A stretch of DNA of 24,000 nucleotides from Serratia sp. UGAL515B_01 (GTDB taxonomy: Bacteria; Pseudomonadota; Gammaproteobacteria; Enterobacterales; Enterobacteriaceae): positions 3,011,766 through 3,035,765 of the forward strand of contig NZ_CP109901.1 of assembly GCF_033095805.1 (NCBI RefSeq), given 5' to 3'. The position numbers and the translations under genes were made by a program. The notes under the pieces were generated by a model. That model saw nothing but the letters and a program-made list of their open reading frames with translations, was not told the origin of the DNA and did no database searches. Shown one piece after another: positions 1 through 20,882 of the stretch (positions are counted from its first letter, which is position 1; each line of letters opens with the position of its first letter).

Positions 1-873
1 GGTTCAGCAGGTGGAATGAAGCATATCCAAAATTTTTCGGGCTTTTTTGATGATACCTTCGTCGTCGTGTGTGGCGATGCACTGATTGATGTCGATTTCG
101 ATCAGGTACTGGCTTTCCACCGGGCAAGAAAAAGTGTCGCGACCCTGATTATGCGCCCGGTTCCACAGGATCAGGTCAGTAAGTACGGCATTGTCGTCAC
201 CGATGAACAAGGCAGGGTCAGTAAGTTCCAGGAAAAACCGAACACGGCAGAGGCATTGTCTAACAATGCTAATACCGGTATCTATGTTTTTGAACCTGAG
301 ATCTTTAATTATATTCCTGACGGTGTTGAATATGACATTGGTAGCCAGTTATTCCCTAAACTGGCAGAAGCAGGCGTTCCTTTCTATGGTATTGCTCTGC
401 CTTTCCAATGGGTTGATATTGGCTCTCTGCAGGATTTCTGGCATGTAAACCGTATGATCCTTAATCGGGAGTTACCTGACTACCCCATGCCGGGGATCCA
501 GATTGCGCCGCAAATCTGGTGTGGTTTAAACGTTAAAGCTGACTTCGCCAACCTGGATATTGAAGGCCCGGTGTATATTGGTAGCAGTACCGAAATACAA
601 CCCGGAGTGACCATTAGAGGGCCTTCGATTATCGGTGCTGGGTGTCTGTTGGAAGAAGGGGCCGTTGTAGAACAGAGTTTTATTGCTGATTATACCCGTG
701 TCGGTGGTATTGCGAATTTAAACCAGCAAATGATTTTTGCTGGTAAGGTGATTTCACCAGATGGGACAGCGATCGATTTATCGGAAGCAGGTTTGAACTG
801 GTTGATTGATGATAAACGGCGTAAAGACATTATTGCCGCCGAGAAATCATTGTTTAATGAATTTCTCTCCTGA
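1..873 (+). CDS. NDP-sugar pyrophosphorylase (nucleotidyltransferase domain plus left-handed beta-helix C-terminal domain); 5' end lies outside the window
   Basis: Frame 1 is open from nt 1 (GSAGGMKHIQ...), so the M at nt 16 is internal. The sequence has sugar-1-P nucleotidyltransferase motifs (VVCGDALIDVDF, KYGIVV..GRV.KFQEKP, NTGIYVFEPEIF). Hexapeptide-like repeats follow (GPVYIGSSTEIQPGVTIRGPSIIGAGCLLEEGAVVEQS). Confidence 0.8.
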   Translation, partial: GSAGGMKHIQNFSGFFDDTFVVVCGDALIDVDFDQVLAFHRARKSVATLIMRPVPQDQVSKYGIVVTDEQGRVSKFQEKPNTAEALSNNANTGIYVFEPEIFNYIPDGVEYDIGSQLFPKLAEAGVPFYGIALPFQWVDIGSLQDFWHVNRMILNRELPDYPMPGIQIAPQIWCGLNVKADFANLDIEGPVYIGSSTEIQPGVTIRGPSIIGAGCLLEEGAVVEQSFIADYTRVGGIANLNQQMIFAGKVISPDGTAIDLSEAGLNWLIDDKRRKDIIAAEKSLFNEFLS

Positions 874-13886: not shown

Positions 13887-14324
13887 TTAATCCCGCAACA
13901 ACCCCATCTGCTGTTCGTATTCTTGGTCCTTCTTATCCTGATGCCTCACATAACGCCTTATAATTTCTTCGTTCACACCAACCGTGTCAACAAAGTAGCC
14001 CCTTGCCCAAAAGTGATTCCCCCAAAGTTTCTTCCGTATATGTGGGAATTTGTTGTAAAGGCGAATTGCACTGCGTCCTTTCAGGACGCCCATTAACGTG
14101 GATATCGAGAGTTTAGGGGGCACCATCACAACCAGATGAACATGATCTGATTGCACATTCAATTCCAATATCTCGCAATCTTTCATATTGCACAGTATGT
14201 AAATTGAACGATAAAACTCTTTCCCTACTACTCCTGTGAGGATTTTGTAACGATACTTTGGCGTCCAAACCAAGTGGTATTTACAACGCCAGAACACATG
14301 TGCTGAACTTCTATAACTGCTCAT
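13887..14324 (-). CDS. tnpA: IS200/IS605-family Y1 (HUH) transposase TnpA
   Basis: HUH motif SDHVHLVV and catalytic Tyr context HFWARGYFVDTVG. The N-terminus MSSYRSSAHVFWRCKYHLVWTPKYR is typical of IS200/IS1541 TnpA. I prefer the ATG at 14324, which has AAGGA upstream; the ORF-track start at 14375 adds 17 unlikely residues. Confidence 0.92.
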   Translation of the reverse strand: MSSYRSSAHVFWRCKYHLVWTPKYRYKILTGVVGKEFYRSIYILCNMKDCEILELNVQSDHVHLVVMVPPKLSISTLMGVLKGRSAIRLYNKFPHIRKKLWGNHFWARGYFVDTVGVNEEIIRRYVRHQDKKDQEYEQQMGLLRD

Positions 14325-14412
14325 GTCAGTGATTTCCTTCTTACTTGTGGTGAGTAAGCTGGAATTTTCTGGCATGGGCTTTCTTCAGGCTAGAGCCTCA
14401 CAGGAACAATCA

Positions 14413-14516: not shown

Positions 14517-17072
14517 CTAAACTAGACTTTTCAGTCGGTAAATCCACTCCAGTGCTTGCCGTGGCGACAGAGCGTCAGCATCTAATGCCTCCAATGCTTC
14601 TAATGCCGGGGAAACCTCTTCATTCAGTAGCGTCATCTGAGTAGTATCCGCCTTACCGGCAGCAGCTTGGCTGGACATCGTCTCCAGTTCACGTAACTTC
14701 TGGCGCGCACGCTTAATCACATCACGAGGCACACCGGCCAATGCCGCAACTGCCAATCCATAACTTTTACTGGCTGCGCCATCTTGCACACTGTGCATAA
14801 AAGCAATCGTATCACCATGTTCCAGAGCATCTAGATGTACATTGACCACGCCTTCTATTTTTTCTGGCAGCGTTGTCAGTTCAAAGTAATGGGTAGCAAA
14901 TAATGTCATCGCTTTGATCCGGCCCGCCAGATTTTCGGCACAAGCCCAAGCAAGGGAAAGCCCATCATAAGTTGAAGTACCGCGACCAATTTCGTCCATT
15001 AGCACTAGGCTGTTCTCAGTAGCATTGTGAAGGATATTAGCAGTTTCGGTCATCTCAACCATGAAGGTAGAGCGACCAGAGGCTAAATCATCAGCAGCGC
15101 CCACGCGAGTAAAAATACGATCCACCGGACCGATAGTCGCTTTGACTGCTGGCACAAAACTACCAATATGTGCCATCAAGACAATCAACGCAATTTGCCG
15201 CATATAGGTACTTTTTCCGCCCATATTGGGTCCGGTAATGATCAGCATACGGCGCTGCGGAGAAAGTGAAACCGGGTTGGCAATAAACGGCTCGCTCAAA
15301 ACCTGCTCGACCACTGGATGACGACCATCAACAATGTGGATACCCCGTTGTTCACTGATGGTTGGGCAAGCGTAATTCAGCGTTTCCGCACGTTCGGCAA
15401 GATTAACCAGTACATCCAGTTCCGCCAATGCCCCTGCGCTCTGCTGTAATGCCTCAAGATGAGGTAACAACAAATCAAACAGTTCGTCATACAACCCTTT
15501 TTCTATCGACAGTGCCTTCCCTTTTGACGTCAGCACTTTGTCTTCATATTCCTTCAACTCAGGAATGATGTAACGCTCCGCATTCTTCAGAGTTTGGCGG
15601 CGAACATAGTGGATCGGGACCAGATGACTTTGCCCGCGACTGACCTGAATATAATAACCGTGCACGCCGTTAAAACCGACCTTAAGGGTGTCCAGGCCCA
15701 ACTTCTCACGTTCACGGATCTCCAGGCGGTCAAGATAATCGCTGGCGCCGTCTGCAAGTGCACGCCACTCATCCAGTTCTTCGTTATAGCCAGGGGCAAT
15801 TACACCGCCGTCACGAACCAGAACAGGAGGCGCTTCAACAATAGCACGTTCAAGTAGCGTCTTCAGTTCATCAAAATCACCGATCTGAGACAGAAGTTTT
15901 TGTACATGGGCCGTTTCTGTACTTTTCAGCAATGCGCAGATATCCGGCAATTGCTGAAAGGCATGGCGCATACGGGCAAGATCACGAGGACGCGCGGTGC
16001 GCAATGCCAATCGTGCAAGAATTCGCTCAAGATCGCCAACCTGACGCAGCGGTTGCTGTAGGTCAGCGCTTAGATTCTGCAGTGTGATGATCGCCTGCTG
16101 TCGATTGTTCAGTACAGCCATGTCGCGCGTAGGCATATGCAGCCAGCGTTTGAGCATTCGGCTACCCATTGGGGTAACGGTGCGATCAAGTATCGCAGCT
16201 AGAGTATTTTCACTTCCCCCGGAAAGGTTTTGAGTAATCTCCAAATTACGACGTGTTGCCGCATCCATGATAATACCGTCTTGCTGGCGCTCCATGGAGA
16301 TACCACGGATATGTGGCAGTGAAGTGCGCTGAGTGTCTTTGACATACTGCAATAGACAGCCCGCTGCACGTAATGCAAGATCGGCCTGTTCGACACCAAA
16401 TCCGTTGAGATCACGGGTACCAAATTGTAGATTCAGCTGTTGGCGTGCAGTTTCCAGCTCAAACTCCCACAGTGGACGACGGCGAAGGCCATGGCGCTGT
16501 TCAATCAGCACCATTTGTTCGAACGTTTCTGGATATAGTAATTCAGCCGGGTTAGTGCGTTGCAATTCAGCTGACATAGTTTCGAGATCTTCCGGTTCGG
16601 CAACTCTGAAACAGCCAGAACTGAGATCCAAAGTGGCATAACCAAAACCGCGACTATCTTGCCATATAGCTGCCAGCAAATTATCTTGGCGTTCTTGCAG
16701 CAAGGCTTCGTCGGTGATCGTGCCTGGCGTCACTATGCGTACAACTTTACGCTCTACCGGACCTTTACTGGTAGCAGGATCGCCAATCTGTTCACAAATC
16801 GCAACCGACTCACCAAGTTGAACTAACTTGGCGAGATAGTTTTCCACGGCATGGTGCGGAACGCCTGCCATTGGAATAGGTTCCCCTGCTGAAGCACCGC
16901 GCTTGGTCAGAGAGATATCCAACAATTGGGATGCACGTTTAGCATCGTCGTAAAACAGCTCGTAGAAATCCCCCATACGATAGAAGAGTAAGATTTCTGG
17001 ATGTTGCGCCTTAAGGCGCAGGTATTGCTGCATCATTGGCGTATGCGAATCGAAAGTTTCGGTTTTTGTCAT
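14517..17072 (-). CDS. mutS: DNA mismatch repair protein MutS
   Basis: 851 aa with the mismatch-binding motif [12 protein letters not shown], Walker [14 protein letters not shown], Walker [17 protein letters not shown] and C-terminal dimerisation region. Confidence 0.97.
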
Positions 17073-17137: not shown

Positions 17138-17431
17138 TCACTTAGTCTCATTAAAAACCACTAAACGTTGCTTGCTGTTAGCACAAGCCTGAACGCAGGC
17201 TGCTATGTTGGCTATCGTATAATGTCTCCACTCAAACTCAAAACCTACGCCTAACGAGCTAAAAATGGATTTATAACTAATAAGATCAATATATTGACCA
17301 TAAAAATGGATAGCAGACGCAGAGTAGGGCAAATCTTTAGCATTCAAAGCAGTAAAAATGATGAAGCCAACGGACAAAAGCCAAACTGATATCAGTGAAA
17401 ATCGAGGCTTGCTTATTTTCACTACGATCAT
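17138..17431 (-). CDS. Hypothetical small protein with a signal-peptide-like N-terminus
   Basis: 97-aa ORF in AT-rich DNA. The hydrophobic N-terminus (LISVWLLSVGFIIFTALNA/KD) looks like a Sec signal. No SD, no recognisable family. It ends 65 nt upstream of the mutS ATG. Confidence 0.3.
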   Translation of the reverse strand: MIVVKISKPRFSLISVWLLSVGFIIFTALNAKDLPYSASAIHFYGQYIDLISYKSIFSSLGVGFEFEWRHYTIANIAACVQACANSKQRLVVFNETK

Positions 17432-17473
17432 TACGACTTTTTTCTAACGCTATACTAGCCCAGTGAGCAATAG

Positions 17474-18734
17474 GCTGTCGTAGGTAAAAATTGGAAGCTT
17501 CCCGCAACTACGCTTGCAACGGCTCAAGTTAGGTTGCAAGAACTGAAGCAAATCAGAAATGAAGGACGCTGTCCGGCCACTGAGTTGAAAGAAAGGAAGC
17601 AAAGGCTGTTAGAGGAAAGCCATTCGCGGTATCTAAGCAGTTCCTGCACGATTTATTCACCCGAGATCGTACCAAGTATCTCAGTCGAACTGACCGTGTA
17701 AGTTACTTGACCAACATTTTCAACAAACGTAAACGTATGACCTTTGATGACATGATCGGGCAGGCGATCAACCGTGGCTGTCAGGTGAAGCATCAATGGT
17801 CAAAACGCGATATACCAAACAAGCCATTCCGAAACTTGTTGAAAACAGTATGGGGCAATCTAGAACCGCTGCATATCAACCTTGATGCGTTGCGGCAATA
17901 TGTGGACACTCACCACTCAGCTAAAAATATGATGTTCTACCGCAATTTCCTGTCTCATTTGGCAGAGGTAGGCGTAGATCTGATTTCAGACACGCCACTG
18001 GTTGTTGCGTACCGGCAGTCATATAAATCAGCTAAAATAGGTGGTCGCTCGTTCGAAATCGGCACTAGCTTCCAAAGTTTGCCCTCCAAGATGAAATGGG
18101 CGTGTCTTGCTCGTGGTTACAACTACGATATAAAGAGGTGCCAGCTTGAGATCCTGCGCCATGAACTACAGTCTATCGACGTTTCAGACCGTAACTTACG
18201 GCTTCTGGATTCAAAAGTGATCTGCAAGGTTTTAGGGGTAGATGAAGCGTTGGTTAAGCAGTTTAGGTATGCCAGTGTGTTCAACTCTGGTTATGTCAGC
18301 CTTTCCTTCAGAAGTGCGACTGTCCGCCTGCTGAGAAAGGAGTTCGGACGCTCTAAAGCCAAACTATTCTCCTGCGCTGGCTTGAACACTTGGAGCCACT
18401 CAAGCACGATCTGGCTAGGTTACTGGACGTTTATGAAGCTACTGGTAAAACTAACCGCTATGGAAAGTGTGTTACAAATGCGGTGGGGCAGACCTTCAAA
18501 TGTACTTACAAGTGCGTGGCAACAGGTACACGGCGGAAGAGTGATGTAATGCGCCGCAAGCTGCTGGCTCATATGCTGCAAGGGTTGGAAAGCTTGGCGG
18601 TCTACCAATTTGTACGCGATCATCCAGGTCTGATATGCGCGTTAGAGCACGATGGGTTTATTTCTTACCGCTTGATTGATGAAAGTTGGCGGCATCCATA
18701 TTTGAAGATTGTCTTGAAAAATCAAGCATCGTAG
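17474..18734 (+). pseudogene. Frameshifted gene for a minimal family-A-like (Pol I/T7-type) polymerase; candidate mobile-element replication protein
   Basis: Three consecutive open frames overlap: frame 2 at 17474-17701, frame 1 at 17584-18549 and frame 0 at 18357-18734. The first has no start codon. The motifs occur in PolA order: A-like YNYDIKRCQLEILRH (18121-18162), B-like FRYASVFNSGY (18265-18297), YGKCVTNAVG (compare GYVxTxxG), LAHMLQGLES (compare the QGxAAD region) and C-like ALEHDGF (18639-18659). The spacings are about 47 aa from A to B and about 127 aa from B to C, close to Pol I. Confidence 0.55.
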
Positions 18735-18938: not shown

Positions 18939-18973
18939 CCCGGTCAATTCAGTTTTTACCGGGCTTTTACTTT
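18939..18973. terminator. Weak bidirectional hairpin between the polymerase-like pseudogene and the convergent immunity-like ORF
   Basis: CCCGGT (18939-18944) pairs with ACCGGG (18958-18963) across a 13-nt loop. cttttacttt follows on the + strand and ttatggctttt on the - strand. Confidence 0.35.
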
Positions 18974-19322
18974 AAAGTTGTTGATAACGCTCATCTTGTA
19001 AAATAAGTGGTTGTATTTCTTCCTCCCACATACGCTTCTGATATGATTGTCCCTCCGTTGGCTCTGTTCGGTTATGAATACAGTCCTTAATCGCTTTTAC
19101 AGCCAAATTAAACTCTTCTTTACTCAACTCACTAAAACTTATCTGATCCAAGGGTAGGTACATCATTATCTTTTCGTGTATATCCGGATGATTCGCCTGC
19201 AATGCCTCATCGAACAATGTTTCTAAAGCATTAGAGGCCGTTCGGTTAAGTCCTACCGTAAGACCCCTTTCACCATAGTTGTTATTATATGCCTTGCACC
19301 CTATATCAAAAAAAGAACCCAT
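18972..19322 (-). CDS. Small acidic protein, immunity/antitoxin-like partner of the upstream 402-aa ORF
   Basis: The ATG at 19322 lies 2 nt after the upstream TGA (19327-19325). It is preceded by GAGGTG embedded in the last codons of the upstream gene. An alternative GTG at 19328 would overlap the stop. The product is 116-118 aa, rich in Glu/Asp, with predicted helical character and no family I can name. Confidence 0.6.
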   Translation of the reverse strand: MGSFFDIGCKAYNNNYGERGLTVGLNRTASNALETLFDEALQANHPDIHEKIMMYLPLDQISFSELSKEEFNLAVKAIKDCIHNRTEPTEGQSYQKRMWEEEIQPLILQDERYQQL

Positions 19323-19324
19323 AA

Positions 19325-20533
19325 TCACCTCATAATAATAAATTTTTCTTGTTGATTTTTAGGTAATGTTTTTATGTAATCCATAAACACTTTCTGGTTA
19401 GATGGTGTCAATACACTAAAATCAACAGGAACTATGTCCGCTTTCCCTAAATGGTCAAGGATTTGTTTTTGACCAATTGGGATTTCCCCATCAGTTCTCG
19501 TCACAGTCATGTTTTTCTCAAAGAACTTGTTTAGTCCATCAACTTCTTTTTGGGATAAGTTCTTTGTTGTATACATAAAATCAACAGTTTTTCCTGCATT
19601 AGGACCACTACTTATAATAAAATCAGCAGTTTTCCCCCCAGTATCAGGTGCTCTTTCTAGGGGCCCTAGCTTATTTTCCAGTCTTGCCGCAGCCGCGGCT
19701 TCTGCTGGATTGTACTTCCCATTGCCATTTATATCTGGTGTATTCAAGCGTTTTTGGCTTTCCAGAGGAGTGGAGTTTATTTTTGTTTCATTAATCCCAT
19801 CGGCATTCTTGGTGAGTGATAGCTTTGAACCCATGCGCCTTGCACCAAGTAGGGCACTAGCAGCCACTGCAGCACCTGCCGTTTTCTCATTCAGTACCTG
19901 ATCGAACCCTTTAGCAGCATCACCCCCCAGCTTTTTAGCAGTATCTGCAAACATTTCAGGGTTCTGGTTATAAATGCCTCCAGCAGCCAGTAAGCGACCT
20001 GCATTAGCGCTGTTTATCGTTCTCAACGGCGCTTGTGCTTGTACTGGGCTTTCTCCGCGCCTGAATTGATTCATTGGTGTTGGACGCGGTTTTCCGTTTG
20101 TTGTCCGGTAGTCTCGCCTAAGGACTGACTGATCGTATTGAGCAATAATCTTTTTTGTCCCCTCAAAACGAAAAGCCATAGGGTCAGTGCAAACCAGCTT
20201 ACCGCCTTCATTGATATAAAACAGGTTTGCCGGGCCGTAGATATCACTCAACATCACCACATCACCGGAAAACACCATTTTTTCCAGTTTCTCTTTTTCA
20301 CGTAGGCCGCGTGAAGCAGTGCGGTGCTGAACAGTACGATCTTCACGCATATTGATGATATAGCGACCCGTACCATAACCCTCATCAAACACATACTCTC
20401 GACAAATCCGTGACCAAGCCCTATGAGCACTGATTATGCGTTCAAACTCTTCAGGGGCAAGATTATCGTTCGGTAGATAGTACAAATAGATACCGGGCAA
20501 ACTCAGGCTCACTGTTACCTCCGTGTTAAGCAT
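19325..20533 (-). CDS. Three-part protein of unknown function (globular N-domain, Ala/Gly/Asn-rich linker, about 100-aa C-terminal toxin-like module)
   Basis: 402-aa intact ORF. An in-frame stop at 20581-20579 limits any upstream extension, and no SD precedes the ATG. The C-terminal module (EAAAAARLENKLG...TADFIISSGPNAGKTVDFMYTTK...) has an E / D / D...K layout reminiscent of PD-(D/E)xK-type toxin domains (weak). It is coupled to the downstream small ORF. Confidence 0.7.
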   Translation of the reverse strand: MLNTEVTVSLSLPGIYLYYLPNDNLAPEEFERIISAHRAWSRICREYVFDEGYGTGRYIINMREDRTVQHRTASRGLREKEKLEKMVFSGDVVMLSDIYGPANLFYINEGGKLVCTDPMAFRFEGTKKIIAQYDQSVLRRDYRTTNGKPRPTPMNQFRRGESPVQAQAPLRTINSANAGRLLAAGGIYNQNPEMFADTAKKLGGDAAKGFDQVLNEKTAGAAVAASALLGARRMGSKLSLTKNADGINETKINSTPLESQKRLNTPDINGNGKYNPAEAAAAARLENKLGPLERAPDTGGKTADFIISSGPNAGKTVDFMYTTKNLSQKEVDGLNKFFEKNMTVTRTDGEIPIGQKQILDHLGKADIVPVDFSVLTPSNQKVFMDYIKTLPKNQQEKFIIMR

Positions 20534-20681: not shown

Positions 20682-20870
20682 TCACTTTTTCAACGTATCG
20701 AGATAATCCGCCCATTTTTGCAGCCAAACCTTACACTCAGCCTCGTAGCGGTAGAGATCGTAAGTGCCTTCGATACCCTTACGTGAATGGCCTAAAACGG
20801 CTTCAGCGACCTCACTGGGACATCCAAGACGTGCCAAGCCAGTACGCACTGTTCGGCGTATGTTCTGATA
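20682..20870 (-). pseudogene. C-terminal remnant (about 62 codons) of a P4/CP4-57-type tyrosine integrase
   Basis: The minus-strand translation is QNIRRTVRTGLARLGCPSEVAEAVLGHSRKGIEGTYDLYRYEAECKVWLQKWADYLDTLKK*. This is the R-box, the LGH-box and the catalytic-Tyr tail of P4-type integrases. There is no start codon, and the frame is closed by a stop at 20880-20882. It is not in the ORF track. Confidence 0.8.
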
Positions 20871-20882
20871 TGTAGAGTTTTA

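Follow-up and report, generated by a model that had tools for sequence, protein, structure and literature searches.

Small polymerases related to family A have been described from mobile elements. TV-Pols were predicted from their gene context to be primase-polymerases (Iyer, Abhiman and Aravind 2008, PMC2579912). CcPol-MP of SCCmec is an A-family polymerase that makes DNA primers, its priming site lying downstream of the helicase gene (PMC7581432; PMC10061031), and CcPol is the sole relative of the TV-Pol kind that has been characterised biochemically (PMC7581432). Further, a jumbo phage has been reported to transduce islands of Pseudomonas that encode AlpA, RadC and a Gp2-like protein (PNAS 2025, PMC12595487). 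Here we analysed a stretch of 24,000 nucleotides (nt) of Serratia sp. UGAL515B_01 (NZ_CP109901.1, 3,011,766-3,035,765), hereafter the window, in whose positions coordinates are given below. Next to mutS it contains the remains of a polymerase gene, which an earlier interpretation made from the letters alone (the sequence-only reading) had described as a minimal family-A-like polymerase on a mobile island, inactivated by frameshifts. Our explanation is that the gene is the dead remnant of a family-A island polymerase whose intact relatives take part in island replication, and we give this explanation as a whole a probability of roughly 0.6.

It is virtually certain that 17617-18734 is the remnant of a family of island polymerases of ~490-500 amino acids (aa), of which the 3' ~75% is kept. 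The remnant lies on the plus strand in two pieces. Piece 1 (17617-18365, in the frame of 17476) represents codons ~124-373; it was 82-83% identical to the intact homologues P0001 and P0002 in tblastn and scored 408 bits with the hidden Markov model (HMM) of the family. Piece 2 (18366-18734, in the frame of 17475) represents codons ~374-499 and the stop codon, with 78-80% identity in tblastn and an HMM score of 187 bits. In tblastn of intact homologues, residues ~117-373 were placed on 17593-18363 and residues 372-496 on 18357-18731 in the other frame. At the DNA level, 17622-18718 aligned with the intact gene of Serratia oryzae with 83% identity over 1101 nt, and the gaps were one of 1 nt after 18365 and one of 3 nt that keeps the frame. 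Thus, one base is missing at 18365/18366 relative to the intact genes; the window reads GCCAAAC/TATTC where the S. oryzae gene reads GCCAAACGTATGA (blastn). The frame switch that had been placed within 18357-18390 is therefore real and consists of this single missing base, which separates the part with motifs A and B from the catalytic Asp of motif C.

The similarity to intact genes begins abruptly, at 17622 in the DNA and at 17617 in the protein (codon ~124-125), and the family HMM with all filters off found no match upstream in the frame of 17474. The start codon had already been reported as absent; it was lost together with polymerase codons 1 to ~124. Immediately upstream, 17328-17605 (plus strand, adjoining the start of mutS) is a decayed N-terminal fragment of a P4-like tyrosine integrase (aa ~7-112, with in-frame stops), which matched the island integrases of S. 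oryzae and Morganella in tblastn (E 1e-16 and 2e-9). Within it, the identity in tblastn was 58-63% over 17498-17605, and the stretch LPATTLATAQVRLQELKQIRNEGRCPATELKERKQ was 58-63% identical to integrase residues 66-112. A rearrangement or deletion joint therefore lies at 17606-17622, where integrase codon ~112 meets polymerase codon ~124-125. The segment 17474-17605, which the sequence-only reading had counted as polymerase, is the decayed integrase N-terminus, and the switch from frame 2 to frame 1 that it saw in 17584-17701 is this joint and involves no frameshift of the polymerase gene itself. The copy is dead as had been claimed, by one frameshift and a 5' truncation or rearrangement instead of two frameshifts. 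Polymerase residues 70-121 showed a weak, collinear similarity to 17486-17626 (E 0.1-1, 28-30% identity); considered as a sign of a second polymerase frameshift, it was rejected as chance, the stretch being integrase.

Piece 1 holds the thumb region, the motif-2 Arg (CGC, 18046-18048), the motif-A Asp (GAT, 18127-18129) and the O-helix Lys (AAG, 18256-18258); piece 2 holds the QG motif (CAA GGG, 18579-18584) and the motif-C His-Asp (CAC GAT, 18648-18653). These equivalences were taken from hhalign. The motifs listed earlier were present at the positions given for them, and translation confirmed both proposed catalytic Asp codons (YNYD, 18127-18129; EHDG, 18651-18653). All key catalytic residues are thus still encoded in the window copy (tblastn).

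Nevertheless, the window copy makes no active enzyme. The longest open reading frame (ORF) ends before motif C, and with the truncation and the 1-nt deletion the copy cannot yield an active polymerase. The conserved leader found upstream of intact polymerase genes, described below, is absent from the window, and the partner module is also gone. The ratio of nonsynonymous to synonymous substitution rates (dN/dS) between the remnant and intact genes was 0.12, compared with 0.13 between two intact genes. Two of 66 invariant positions are changed in the remnant (G274S and N418K), whereas intact homologues had 0.6 such changes on average in a leave-one-out comparison. Either the gene was therefore inactivated recently in comparison with the divergence, or recombination has replaced the block in recent times. 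At 18365 the missing base could be an assembly error; the 5' truncation is structural.

As had been anticipated, the dead copy led to intact relatives, which were found with their neighbourhoods by protein and tblastn searches. The conceptually repaired product matched ~186 proteins (best E 1e-208), which is far beyond what ORFs arising by chance would give. The best homologues were 490-501 aa long and belonged to Serratia, Yersinia, Pectobacterium, Pantoea, Salmonella, E. coli, Klebsiella, Proteus, Morganella and Providencia, and an exhaustive profile search gave 350 cluster representatives (50% identity clusters) at E ≤ 1e-3. The family is thus large; in its narrow sense it is almost confined to Enterobacterales, where it is common in islands. 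Intact proteins consist of an N-terminal domain of ~120 aa, which has no assigned fold and is mixed alpha/beta in the AlphaFold model, and a thumb-palm-fingers domain of ~380 aa. The size of 340-420 aa proposed for a minimal family-A-like polymerase thus holds for the core and fails for the protein, which has 490-500 aa when intact. The proposed lack of an exonuclease domain agrees with the Pfam, NCBIfam and PHROGs scans, which detected none.

Scans of the repaired protein against Pfam, NCBIfam and PADLOC gave no match, and the PHROGs scan gave a single one, phrog_30690, the function of which is listed as unknown (E 4.5e-25). Further, in a Pfam scan of 88 relatives at E ≤ 0.01, neither PF00476 nor a fused helicase, exonuclease or other domain was found. 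Because no relative reaches PF00476, the family is invisible to routine annotation. The label in the records and cluster look-ups that we saw was always "hypothetical protein", as given by the annotation pipeline PGAP, and no source named the family. The 270-aa ORF within the remnant is itself 100% identical to an annotated "hypothetical protein" of Serratia sp. UGAL515B_01.

Outside the window, the same genome carries a second partial copy (P0011, annotated with 268 aa, 86% identical), which covers residues ~229-499 with all motifs present. Among 5426 complete E. coli genomes, 516 matched only the last ~185-190 nt of the polymerase gene, which are unannotated (e.g., NZ_CP098219.1, 2161066-2161258), and two carried a full-length gene at the sensitivity of megablast. 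The 3' end of the gene is thus a common scar in E. coli and perhaps a recombination boundary for cargo exchange.

We next consider the fold. The intact S. oryzae protein P0002, which is 83% identical to the remnant, was modelled by AlphaFold2 with 50 homologues, and the mean of the predicted local distance difference test (pLDDT) was 84.9. When this model was compared with the PDB using Foldseek, 55 matches were obtained at E ≤ 1e-3, and all were family-A polymerases with a probability of 1.00, including KlenTaq, Klenow, Bst Pol I, M. smegmatis Pol1, Pol theta and apPol. The best matches in BFVD were uncharacterised proteins of Dickeya and Erwinia jumbo phages, with template modelling (TM) scores up to 0.69, followed by virophage helicase/primase/polymerase proteins (E 7e-5 to 4.5e-4) and annotated phage PolAs. 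The sequence link was examined with a broad alignment of 88 relatives, down to 17% identity, and a close alignment of 50 homologues. In hhalign, the 88-sequence profile matched residues 654-887 of E. coli Pol I (E 3e-4) and, with a probability of 95.6% (E 1.1e-8), a PolA reference alignment of nine sequences, in which seven phage PolAs were combined with Pol I and T7 DNA polymerase. The corresponding match to T7 RNA polymerase was not significant (E 0.26), compared with E 1e-3 for the DNA polymerase when single sequences were compared. By sequence, the family is therefore nearer to DNA polymerases than to T7 RNA polymerase, and we claim no closer link to RNA polymerases. Sequence searches of the PDB with the close-family profile gave nothing but chance matches; the best non-spurious matches of the broad profile were T7 DNA polymerase and Pol gamma, at only E ~1.

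From the model and the profile comparison, the fold of the family is very probably that of family A, and the active site with its two Asp residues is very probably intact. The central proposal of the sequence-only reading, a family-A-like core on a mobile island, is thus supported, and the model pointed to family-A polymerases only and to no unrelated fold. The comparison with PF00476 that had been recommended gave no match above threshold; our own PolA alignment succeeded with the broad profile.

The conservation of individual residues followed the same pattern. R267 and K337 were invariant in the 88 relatives, and G266, Q276, K283, N292, D294, N411, G446, E448, H468, D469 and G470 were at least 90% conserved. 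The two Asp residues proposed as catalytic, D294 and D469, are thus kept among homologues; in the 50 close homologues D294 was invariant and D469 at least 90% conserved. In register with Pol I, R267 corresponds to R668, Q276 to Q677, D294 to D705, K337 to K758, Y341 to F762, F345 to Y766, Q445-G446 to Q849-G850 and H468-D469 to H881-D882. In motif 2, GGRSFE..GFQSLP aligned with TGRLSS..NLQNIP, and D294 also aligned with D475 of T7. In the model, H468-D469 sit between strands 463-467 and 470-473. D294 and K337 are 43 aa apart, and K337 and D469 are 132 aa apart, compared with 53 and 124 in E. coli Pol I; the earlier counts of ~47 aa from motif A to motif B and ~127 aa from motif B to motif C were about right.

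To place the gene in context, we compared the loci of S. oryzae, E. coli and Morganella and 34 loci from species-representative genomes; ~25 of these carry a full-length gene. Most of the ~25 full-length loci share a core synteny, in which the polymerase is the last core gene. The order is DUF2787, RadC, a ~309-aa tyrosine recombinase, a 166-aa gene on the opposite strand and AlpA, followed by either a 383-406 aa protein or a 264-aa protein and a 548-aa DUF927 protein. Then come a gap of 0.5-0.75 kb without a conserved ORF, the polymerase and variable cargo, namely type I restriction-modification, HNH, and PAAR/pyocin or CdiA-CT toxins with immunity genes. As in the window, a P4-like integrase adjoins mutS in Morganella, where the island lies directly upstream of mutS. 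A search with Rfam gave no match in the window or in three intact loci; the islands are thus not marked there by a tRNA or a known RNA.

The alternative genes before the polymerase resemble replication initiators. The DUF927 protein matched the C-terminal helicase half of phage primase-helicases (E 5e-39) and the model of the SCCmec Cch1 helicase (E 1e-10). This Cch1-like helicase is upstream in a subset of loci (L002, L009, L016, L024 and L052), and the other loci have the 383-406 aa protein (e.g., L003:8119-9339 and L007:8360-9511). The latter has invariant RIDWLS, VTRxDIALD, IYxK and FLRxExR-type motifs, which correspond to the RxDxAxD, YxK and RxExR of RepD-type proteins. Its model (pLDDT 80) matched only staphylococcal and Geobacillus RepD/RepDE in Foldseek (4cwe, 4cwc and 4cij; E 8e-12 to 4e-8), and the match to Pfam Rep_trans was sub-threshold (E 0.036). 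According to the model, the 383-406 aa protein thus has the fold of a RepD-like rolling-circle initiator. The RepD-like protein and the DUF927 set are unrelated; two types of initiator therefore replace each other before the same polymerase gene. The 264-aa protein was considered as a relative of the Rep-like protein and was rejected on comparison.

Alignment across loci revealed a non-coding leader of ~400 nt before the polymerase start (L002/L003/L009-L016/L024, e.g., L003:9600-10000), which is conserved across genera whichever initiator precedes it. Four blocks are invariant, namely CTATAGCCATTATCCAG, the CCATTAT unit of which is expanded sevenfold in one genome (L013); the hairpin GAGGCT(C)AGCCTC; a run rich in AT; and GTAATTCAGTTGTAAATAAATGGGG. 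A repeat search detected no obvious iterons in the gaps. On these sequence features, the leader is a candidate origin, priming site or regulatory leader.

Relatives of the polymerase are also found in phages. Jumbo phages of Erwinia, Dickeya and Yersinia encode homologues (tblastn E down to 1e-41), with at least 80% of the length covered in 41 of 42 matching records; examples are gp224 of Alexandra (L043, 182342-183919) and a protein of vB_DsoM_JA29, and the corresponding group is phrog_30690. These homologues are 25-28% identical, and in the phage genomes, which are 250-267 kb in size, their neighbours are all hypothetical genes. More distant members lie in phage-like contigs, where their neighbours are either a UvrD helicase and RNase H or a separate 5'-3' exonuclease together with a DHHA1 protein and ThyX. 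No relative was detected in IMG/VR viral contigs with two peptide patterns.

The context of the intact relatives, that is, AlpA, an initiator and the leader, suggests that the intact family serves the replication of the islands as a polymerase or primase similar in kind to TV-Pol and CcPol, and we put the chance of a role in island replication at a little above even. AlpA would first drive induction and excision of the island. The initiator would then open (helicase) or nick (Rep protein) the island origin, and the Pol I-like enzyme of the island would extend the nick or a primer, or would make DNA primers itself as CcPol of SCCmec does. The element would in this way replicate without depending on Pol I or primase of the host.

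Several observations weigh against our explanation. The TM-scores in Foldseek against solved polymerases were only 0.3-0.41, the close family alone did not match PolA significantly in hhalign (E 0.18), and no family member, neither the repaired protein nor the 88 relatives, reaches any Pfam model, PF00476 included. E883 of Pol I is replaced by Gly470 (HDG for HDE), and this Gly is at least 90% conserved. In the RxxxK of the O-helix, the Lys (K337) is invariant and the aromatics are kept (Y341 and F345), whereas the Arg at K-4, the equivalent of Arg754, is absent. Given HDG and the missing Arg, catalysis could be altered or weak. The polymerase gene is 0.5-0.75 kb from the initiator gene, in one E. 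coli with cargo and an insertion sequence (IS) also in between, and it may not be co-transcribed with the initiator. No MP-like small OB-fold partner adjoins the polymerase in the loci examined. In Erwinia jumbo phages the family is not the sole polymerase, because a canonical PolA occurs alongside the homologue; at least pEa_SNUABM_22 (L050, 143617-146784) also encodes a canonical PolA-like protein, annotated as hypothetical. Finally, the low dN/dS of the remnant means that the decay is recent or that the 1-nt deletion is an assembly error.

An enzyme with a Pol I-like fold could have another job, such as DNA repair or gap filling, an anti-phage or anti-defence function, or the upkeep of the cargo hotspot that it borders. 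The gene does lie at the border between the conserved core and variable defence and toxin cargo, and cargo and IS can separate it from the helicase gene. The 516 of 5426 complete E. coli genomes with only the last ~185 nt keep these beside cargo, and both the non-canonical active site, with HDG and no Arg in RxxxK, and the presence of a homologue in jumbo phages with their own PolA would suit such a job. However, no PADLOC match was obtained, the gene keeps a tight synteny with AlpA and the two alternative replication initiators in different genera, the distant phage members lie among replication genes, and the leader looks origin-like in that it has a hairpin, an AT-rich block and a CCATTAT unit that can expand. 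We therefore regard another job as unlikely, and prefer a role in island replication.

A bolder version of the replication role is that the intact family is a self-contained primase-polymerase that would start at the leader before its own gene with interchangeable initiators, either a RepD-like nickase or a Cch-like helicase, and that the islands would form a new class of satellites, perhaps mobilised by jumbo phages. The idea of mobilisation comes from the homologues in jumbo phages and from the analogy with the Pseudomonas islands that carry AlpA, RadC and a Gp2-like protein (PMC12595487). We consider this version distinctly unlikely; if it were true, there would be a new class of replicating, defence-carrying satellites in Enterobacterales.

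It is very improbable that the likeness to family A is structural only and that the family is an inactive or non-polymerase derivative, for example, a DNA-binding scaffold. The missing Pfam hit, the low TM-scores and the loss of the Glu883 and Arg754 equivalents would fit such a derivative, as would the finding that some Pol partners of Pol-SSB pairs keep little beyond a possibly vestigial RRM core (Rice 2023, PMC10061031). In contrast, the two Asp residues that bind metal are invariant or at least 90% conserved down to 17% identity, as are the Lys of the O-helix, the Arg of motif 2 and the QG motif, which is the pattern expected of an active enzyme. Further, T7 RNA polymerase also has no Glu after the motif-C Asp, and its HDS (IHDSFG) likewise combines His-Asp with a small residue.

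That the window copy itself is functional, the deletion being a long-read assembly error and the bare polymerase domain being expressed from an internal start, is extremely improbable: its dN/dS against intact genes equals that between intact genes, every catalytic residue is intact, the truncation takes only the ~120-aa N-terminal domain and leaves the polymerase domain nearly whole, integrase and polymerase are joined in a similar way, almost at the same codon, in another Serratia species and NCBI annotates the 270-aa ORF, but there is no start codon near the joint (the first ATG is at 17737, codon ~163, and the longest ORF opens with TTG at 17707), the leader with the presumed promoter is missing from the window, nothing is left of the core module with its initiator and AlpA, G274S and N418K exceed the mean of 0.6 changes in intact homologues, the Serratia sp. 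L9 copy is itself frameshifted and remnants of the gene are common.

The remnant is part of a degraded island next to mutS. The ORFs of the window are, in order, ispD-ispF-truD-surE-pcm-nlpD-rpoS, an IS200-type tnpA and mutS (14517-17072, minus strand). From the start of mutS to ~21300 the G+C content is 36-47%, compared with 48-51% in the flanks, and this low-G+C stretch contains the polymerase remnant, a CdiA-CT tRNase toxin with a probable immunity gene and an LprI-like gene. The C-terminal 61 aa of a P4-like integrase (20691-20873, minus strand) were 93% identical to aa 376-436 of the S. oryzae integrase in tblastn (E 3e-33); this piece marks the other side of the island remnant. The island integrases matched by the fragments have Arm-DNA-bind_3 and Phage_integrase domains. 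The element had been called integrase-bearing; the window has no intact integrase, only these two fragments.

The layout of the window is int-N(+), pol 125-499(+), immunity(-), toxin(-) and int-C(-), so that the integrase pieces bracket the block. This order would result from a layout like that of S. oryzae through one inversion between int and pol. However, the integrase pieces differ greatly in decay, so that a superposition of two islands is just as possible. In Serratia sp. L9, the overall layout by mutS matches that of the window and the joint is at nearly the same polymerase codon; the integrase fragment by mutS is 76.6% identical at the nt level to the equivalent fragment in the window, and the L9 polymerase belongs to a different subfamily.

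The toxin gene (19325-20533, minus strand) is island cargo with a CdiA-CT tRNase domain (Pfam PF18664, E 8.5e-44). Its 402-aa product has the tRNase domain at the C-terminus and 275 N-terminal aa without assignment, and neither CdiB nor a full-length CdiA is encoded in the window. The overlapping gene at 18972-19328 (minus strand; 118 aa, no family hit) is presumably the immunity gene. The pair occupies the position of the PAAR/pyocin and CdiI_5 pair 3' of the intact polymerase gene in S. oryzae. Between rpoS and mutS, 13887-14375 (minus strand) is an ORF that resembles IS200/IS605-type TnpA as judged by eye from its motifs, and part of the region inserted between rpoS and mutS matches a locus of Serratia aquatilis (L037) with 84% identity. 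A hydrophobic 97-aa ORF without a family hit (17138-17431, minus strand) lies opposite the decayed integrase fragment and is probably not a gene. An 18-nt direct repeat (17370-17387 and 18348-18365; 11 nt exact, AAAGCCAAACT) has its first copy inside the integrase fragment and its second copy ending exactly at the frameshift site; it is probably due to chance.

The window locus is thus a pseudogene with no function of its own, and its value is that it exposed the family. Copies of the polymerase occur in many genera of Enterobacterales, and ~10% of complete E. coli genomes bear 3' scars of the gene. If the intact enzymes are active, a polymerase or primase of their own would come with the common islands that carry defence genes in E. 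coli, Salmonella, Serratia, Yersinia and relatives, and these islands would replicate autonomously after induction, which would affect the spread of immunity and toxin genes. The hosts are easily cultured, and the family offers a route to how DNA synthesis is started by an adapted A-family polymerase. For genome annotation, a new domain model would be justified. In the literature that we searched, no account was found of the pairing of such a polymerase with a RepD-like initiator and a conserved leader.

In comparison with Pol I (Klenow, KlenTaq and Bst), which provided the best solved structural matches, motifs 2, A, B, 6 and C are in register with similar spacing. However, the identity is 12-16%, neither a 5'-3' nor a 3'-5' exonuclease domain was detected in the family, and the family has HDG for HDE, no equivalent of Arg754 and an N-terminal domain of ~120 aa. 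Two extra residues also lie between the motif-A Asp and the QxE helix. The jumbo-phage proteins are true homologues of the island family (Foldseek TM 0.69; PHROG E 4.5e-25), although they are 25-28% identical and are encoded in phage genomes with their own PolA and among hypothetical neighbours only.

CcPol-MP (Bebel et al. 2020, PMC7581432; Rice 2023, PMC10061031) resembles the family in having an A-family domain in the replication module of an integrative element, in its association, seen for the family in a subset of loci, with a self-loading helicase, the DUF927 neighbour of the family being similar to Cch1, and in a probable origin downstream of the helicase gene. In contrast to the family, which has no Pfam hit, CcPol is recognisably Pol I-like by sequence. 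No gene for an MP-like small OB-fold protein adjoins the family gene, which cargo follows directly, and the order in the family is helicase and then polymerase with a gap of 0.5-0.75 kb. Further, the DUF927 helicase Cch of SCCmec pairs with LP1413 and not with CcPol, and CcPol-MP pairs have been described from Bacillota.

The family is also similar to TV-Pols (PMC2579912), here likened by their published description rather than by named TV-Pol sequences, and its membership in TV-Pol is plausible. Both are small polymerases related to superfamily A, with no fused nuclease domain detected in our family, and the beta-hairpin Arg (R267 here), two palm Asp residues and the fingers Lys are conserved. 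TV-Pols are found on integrase-bearing mobile elements or viruses beside replicative helicases, which fits most of the ~25 full-length loci, virophage proteins of the TV-Pol kind were among the structural matches, and helices of the thumb, described as a coiled coil in TV-Pols, are present in the model of the family. Unlike TV-Pols, the family keeps only the Lys of RxxxK, its N-terminal domain is mixed alpha/beta in the model rather than all-helical, its partner can be a RepD-like rolling-circle initiator, and in its narrow sense it hardly extends beyond Enterobacterales. Mobile elements are already known to carry small polymerases related to family A (TV-Pol 2008, CcPol-MP 2020), and the family of Enterobacterales and jumbo phages appears to be an unannotated one beside them.

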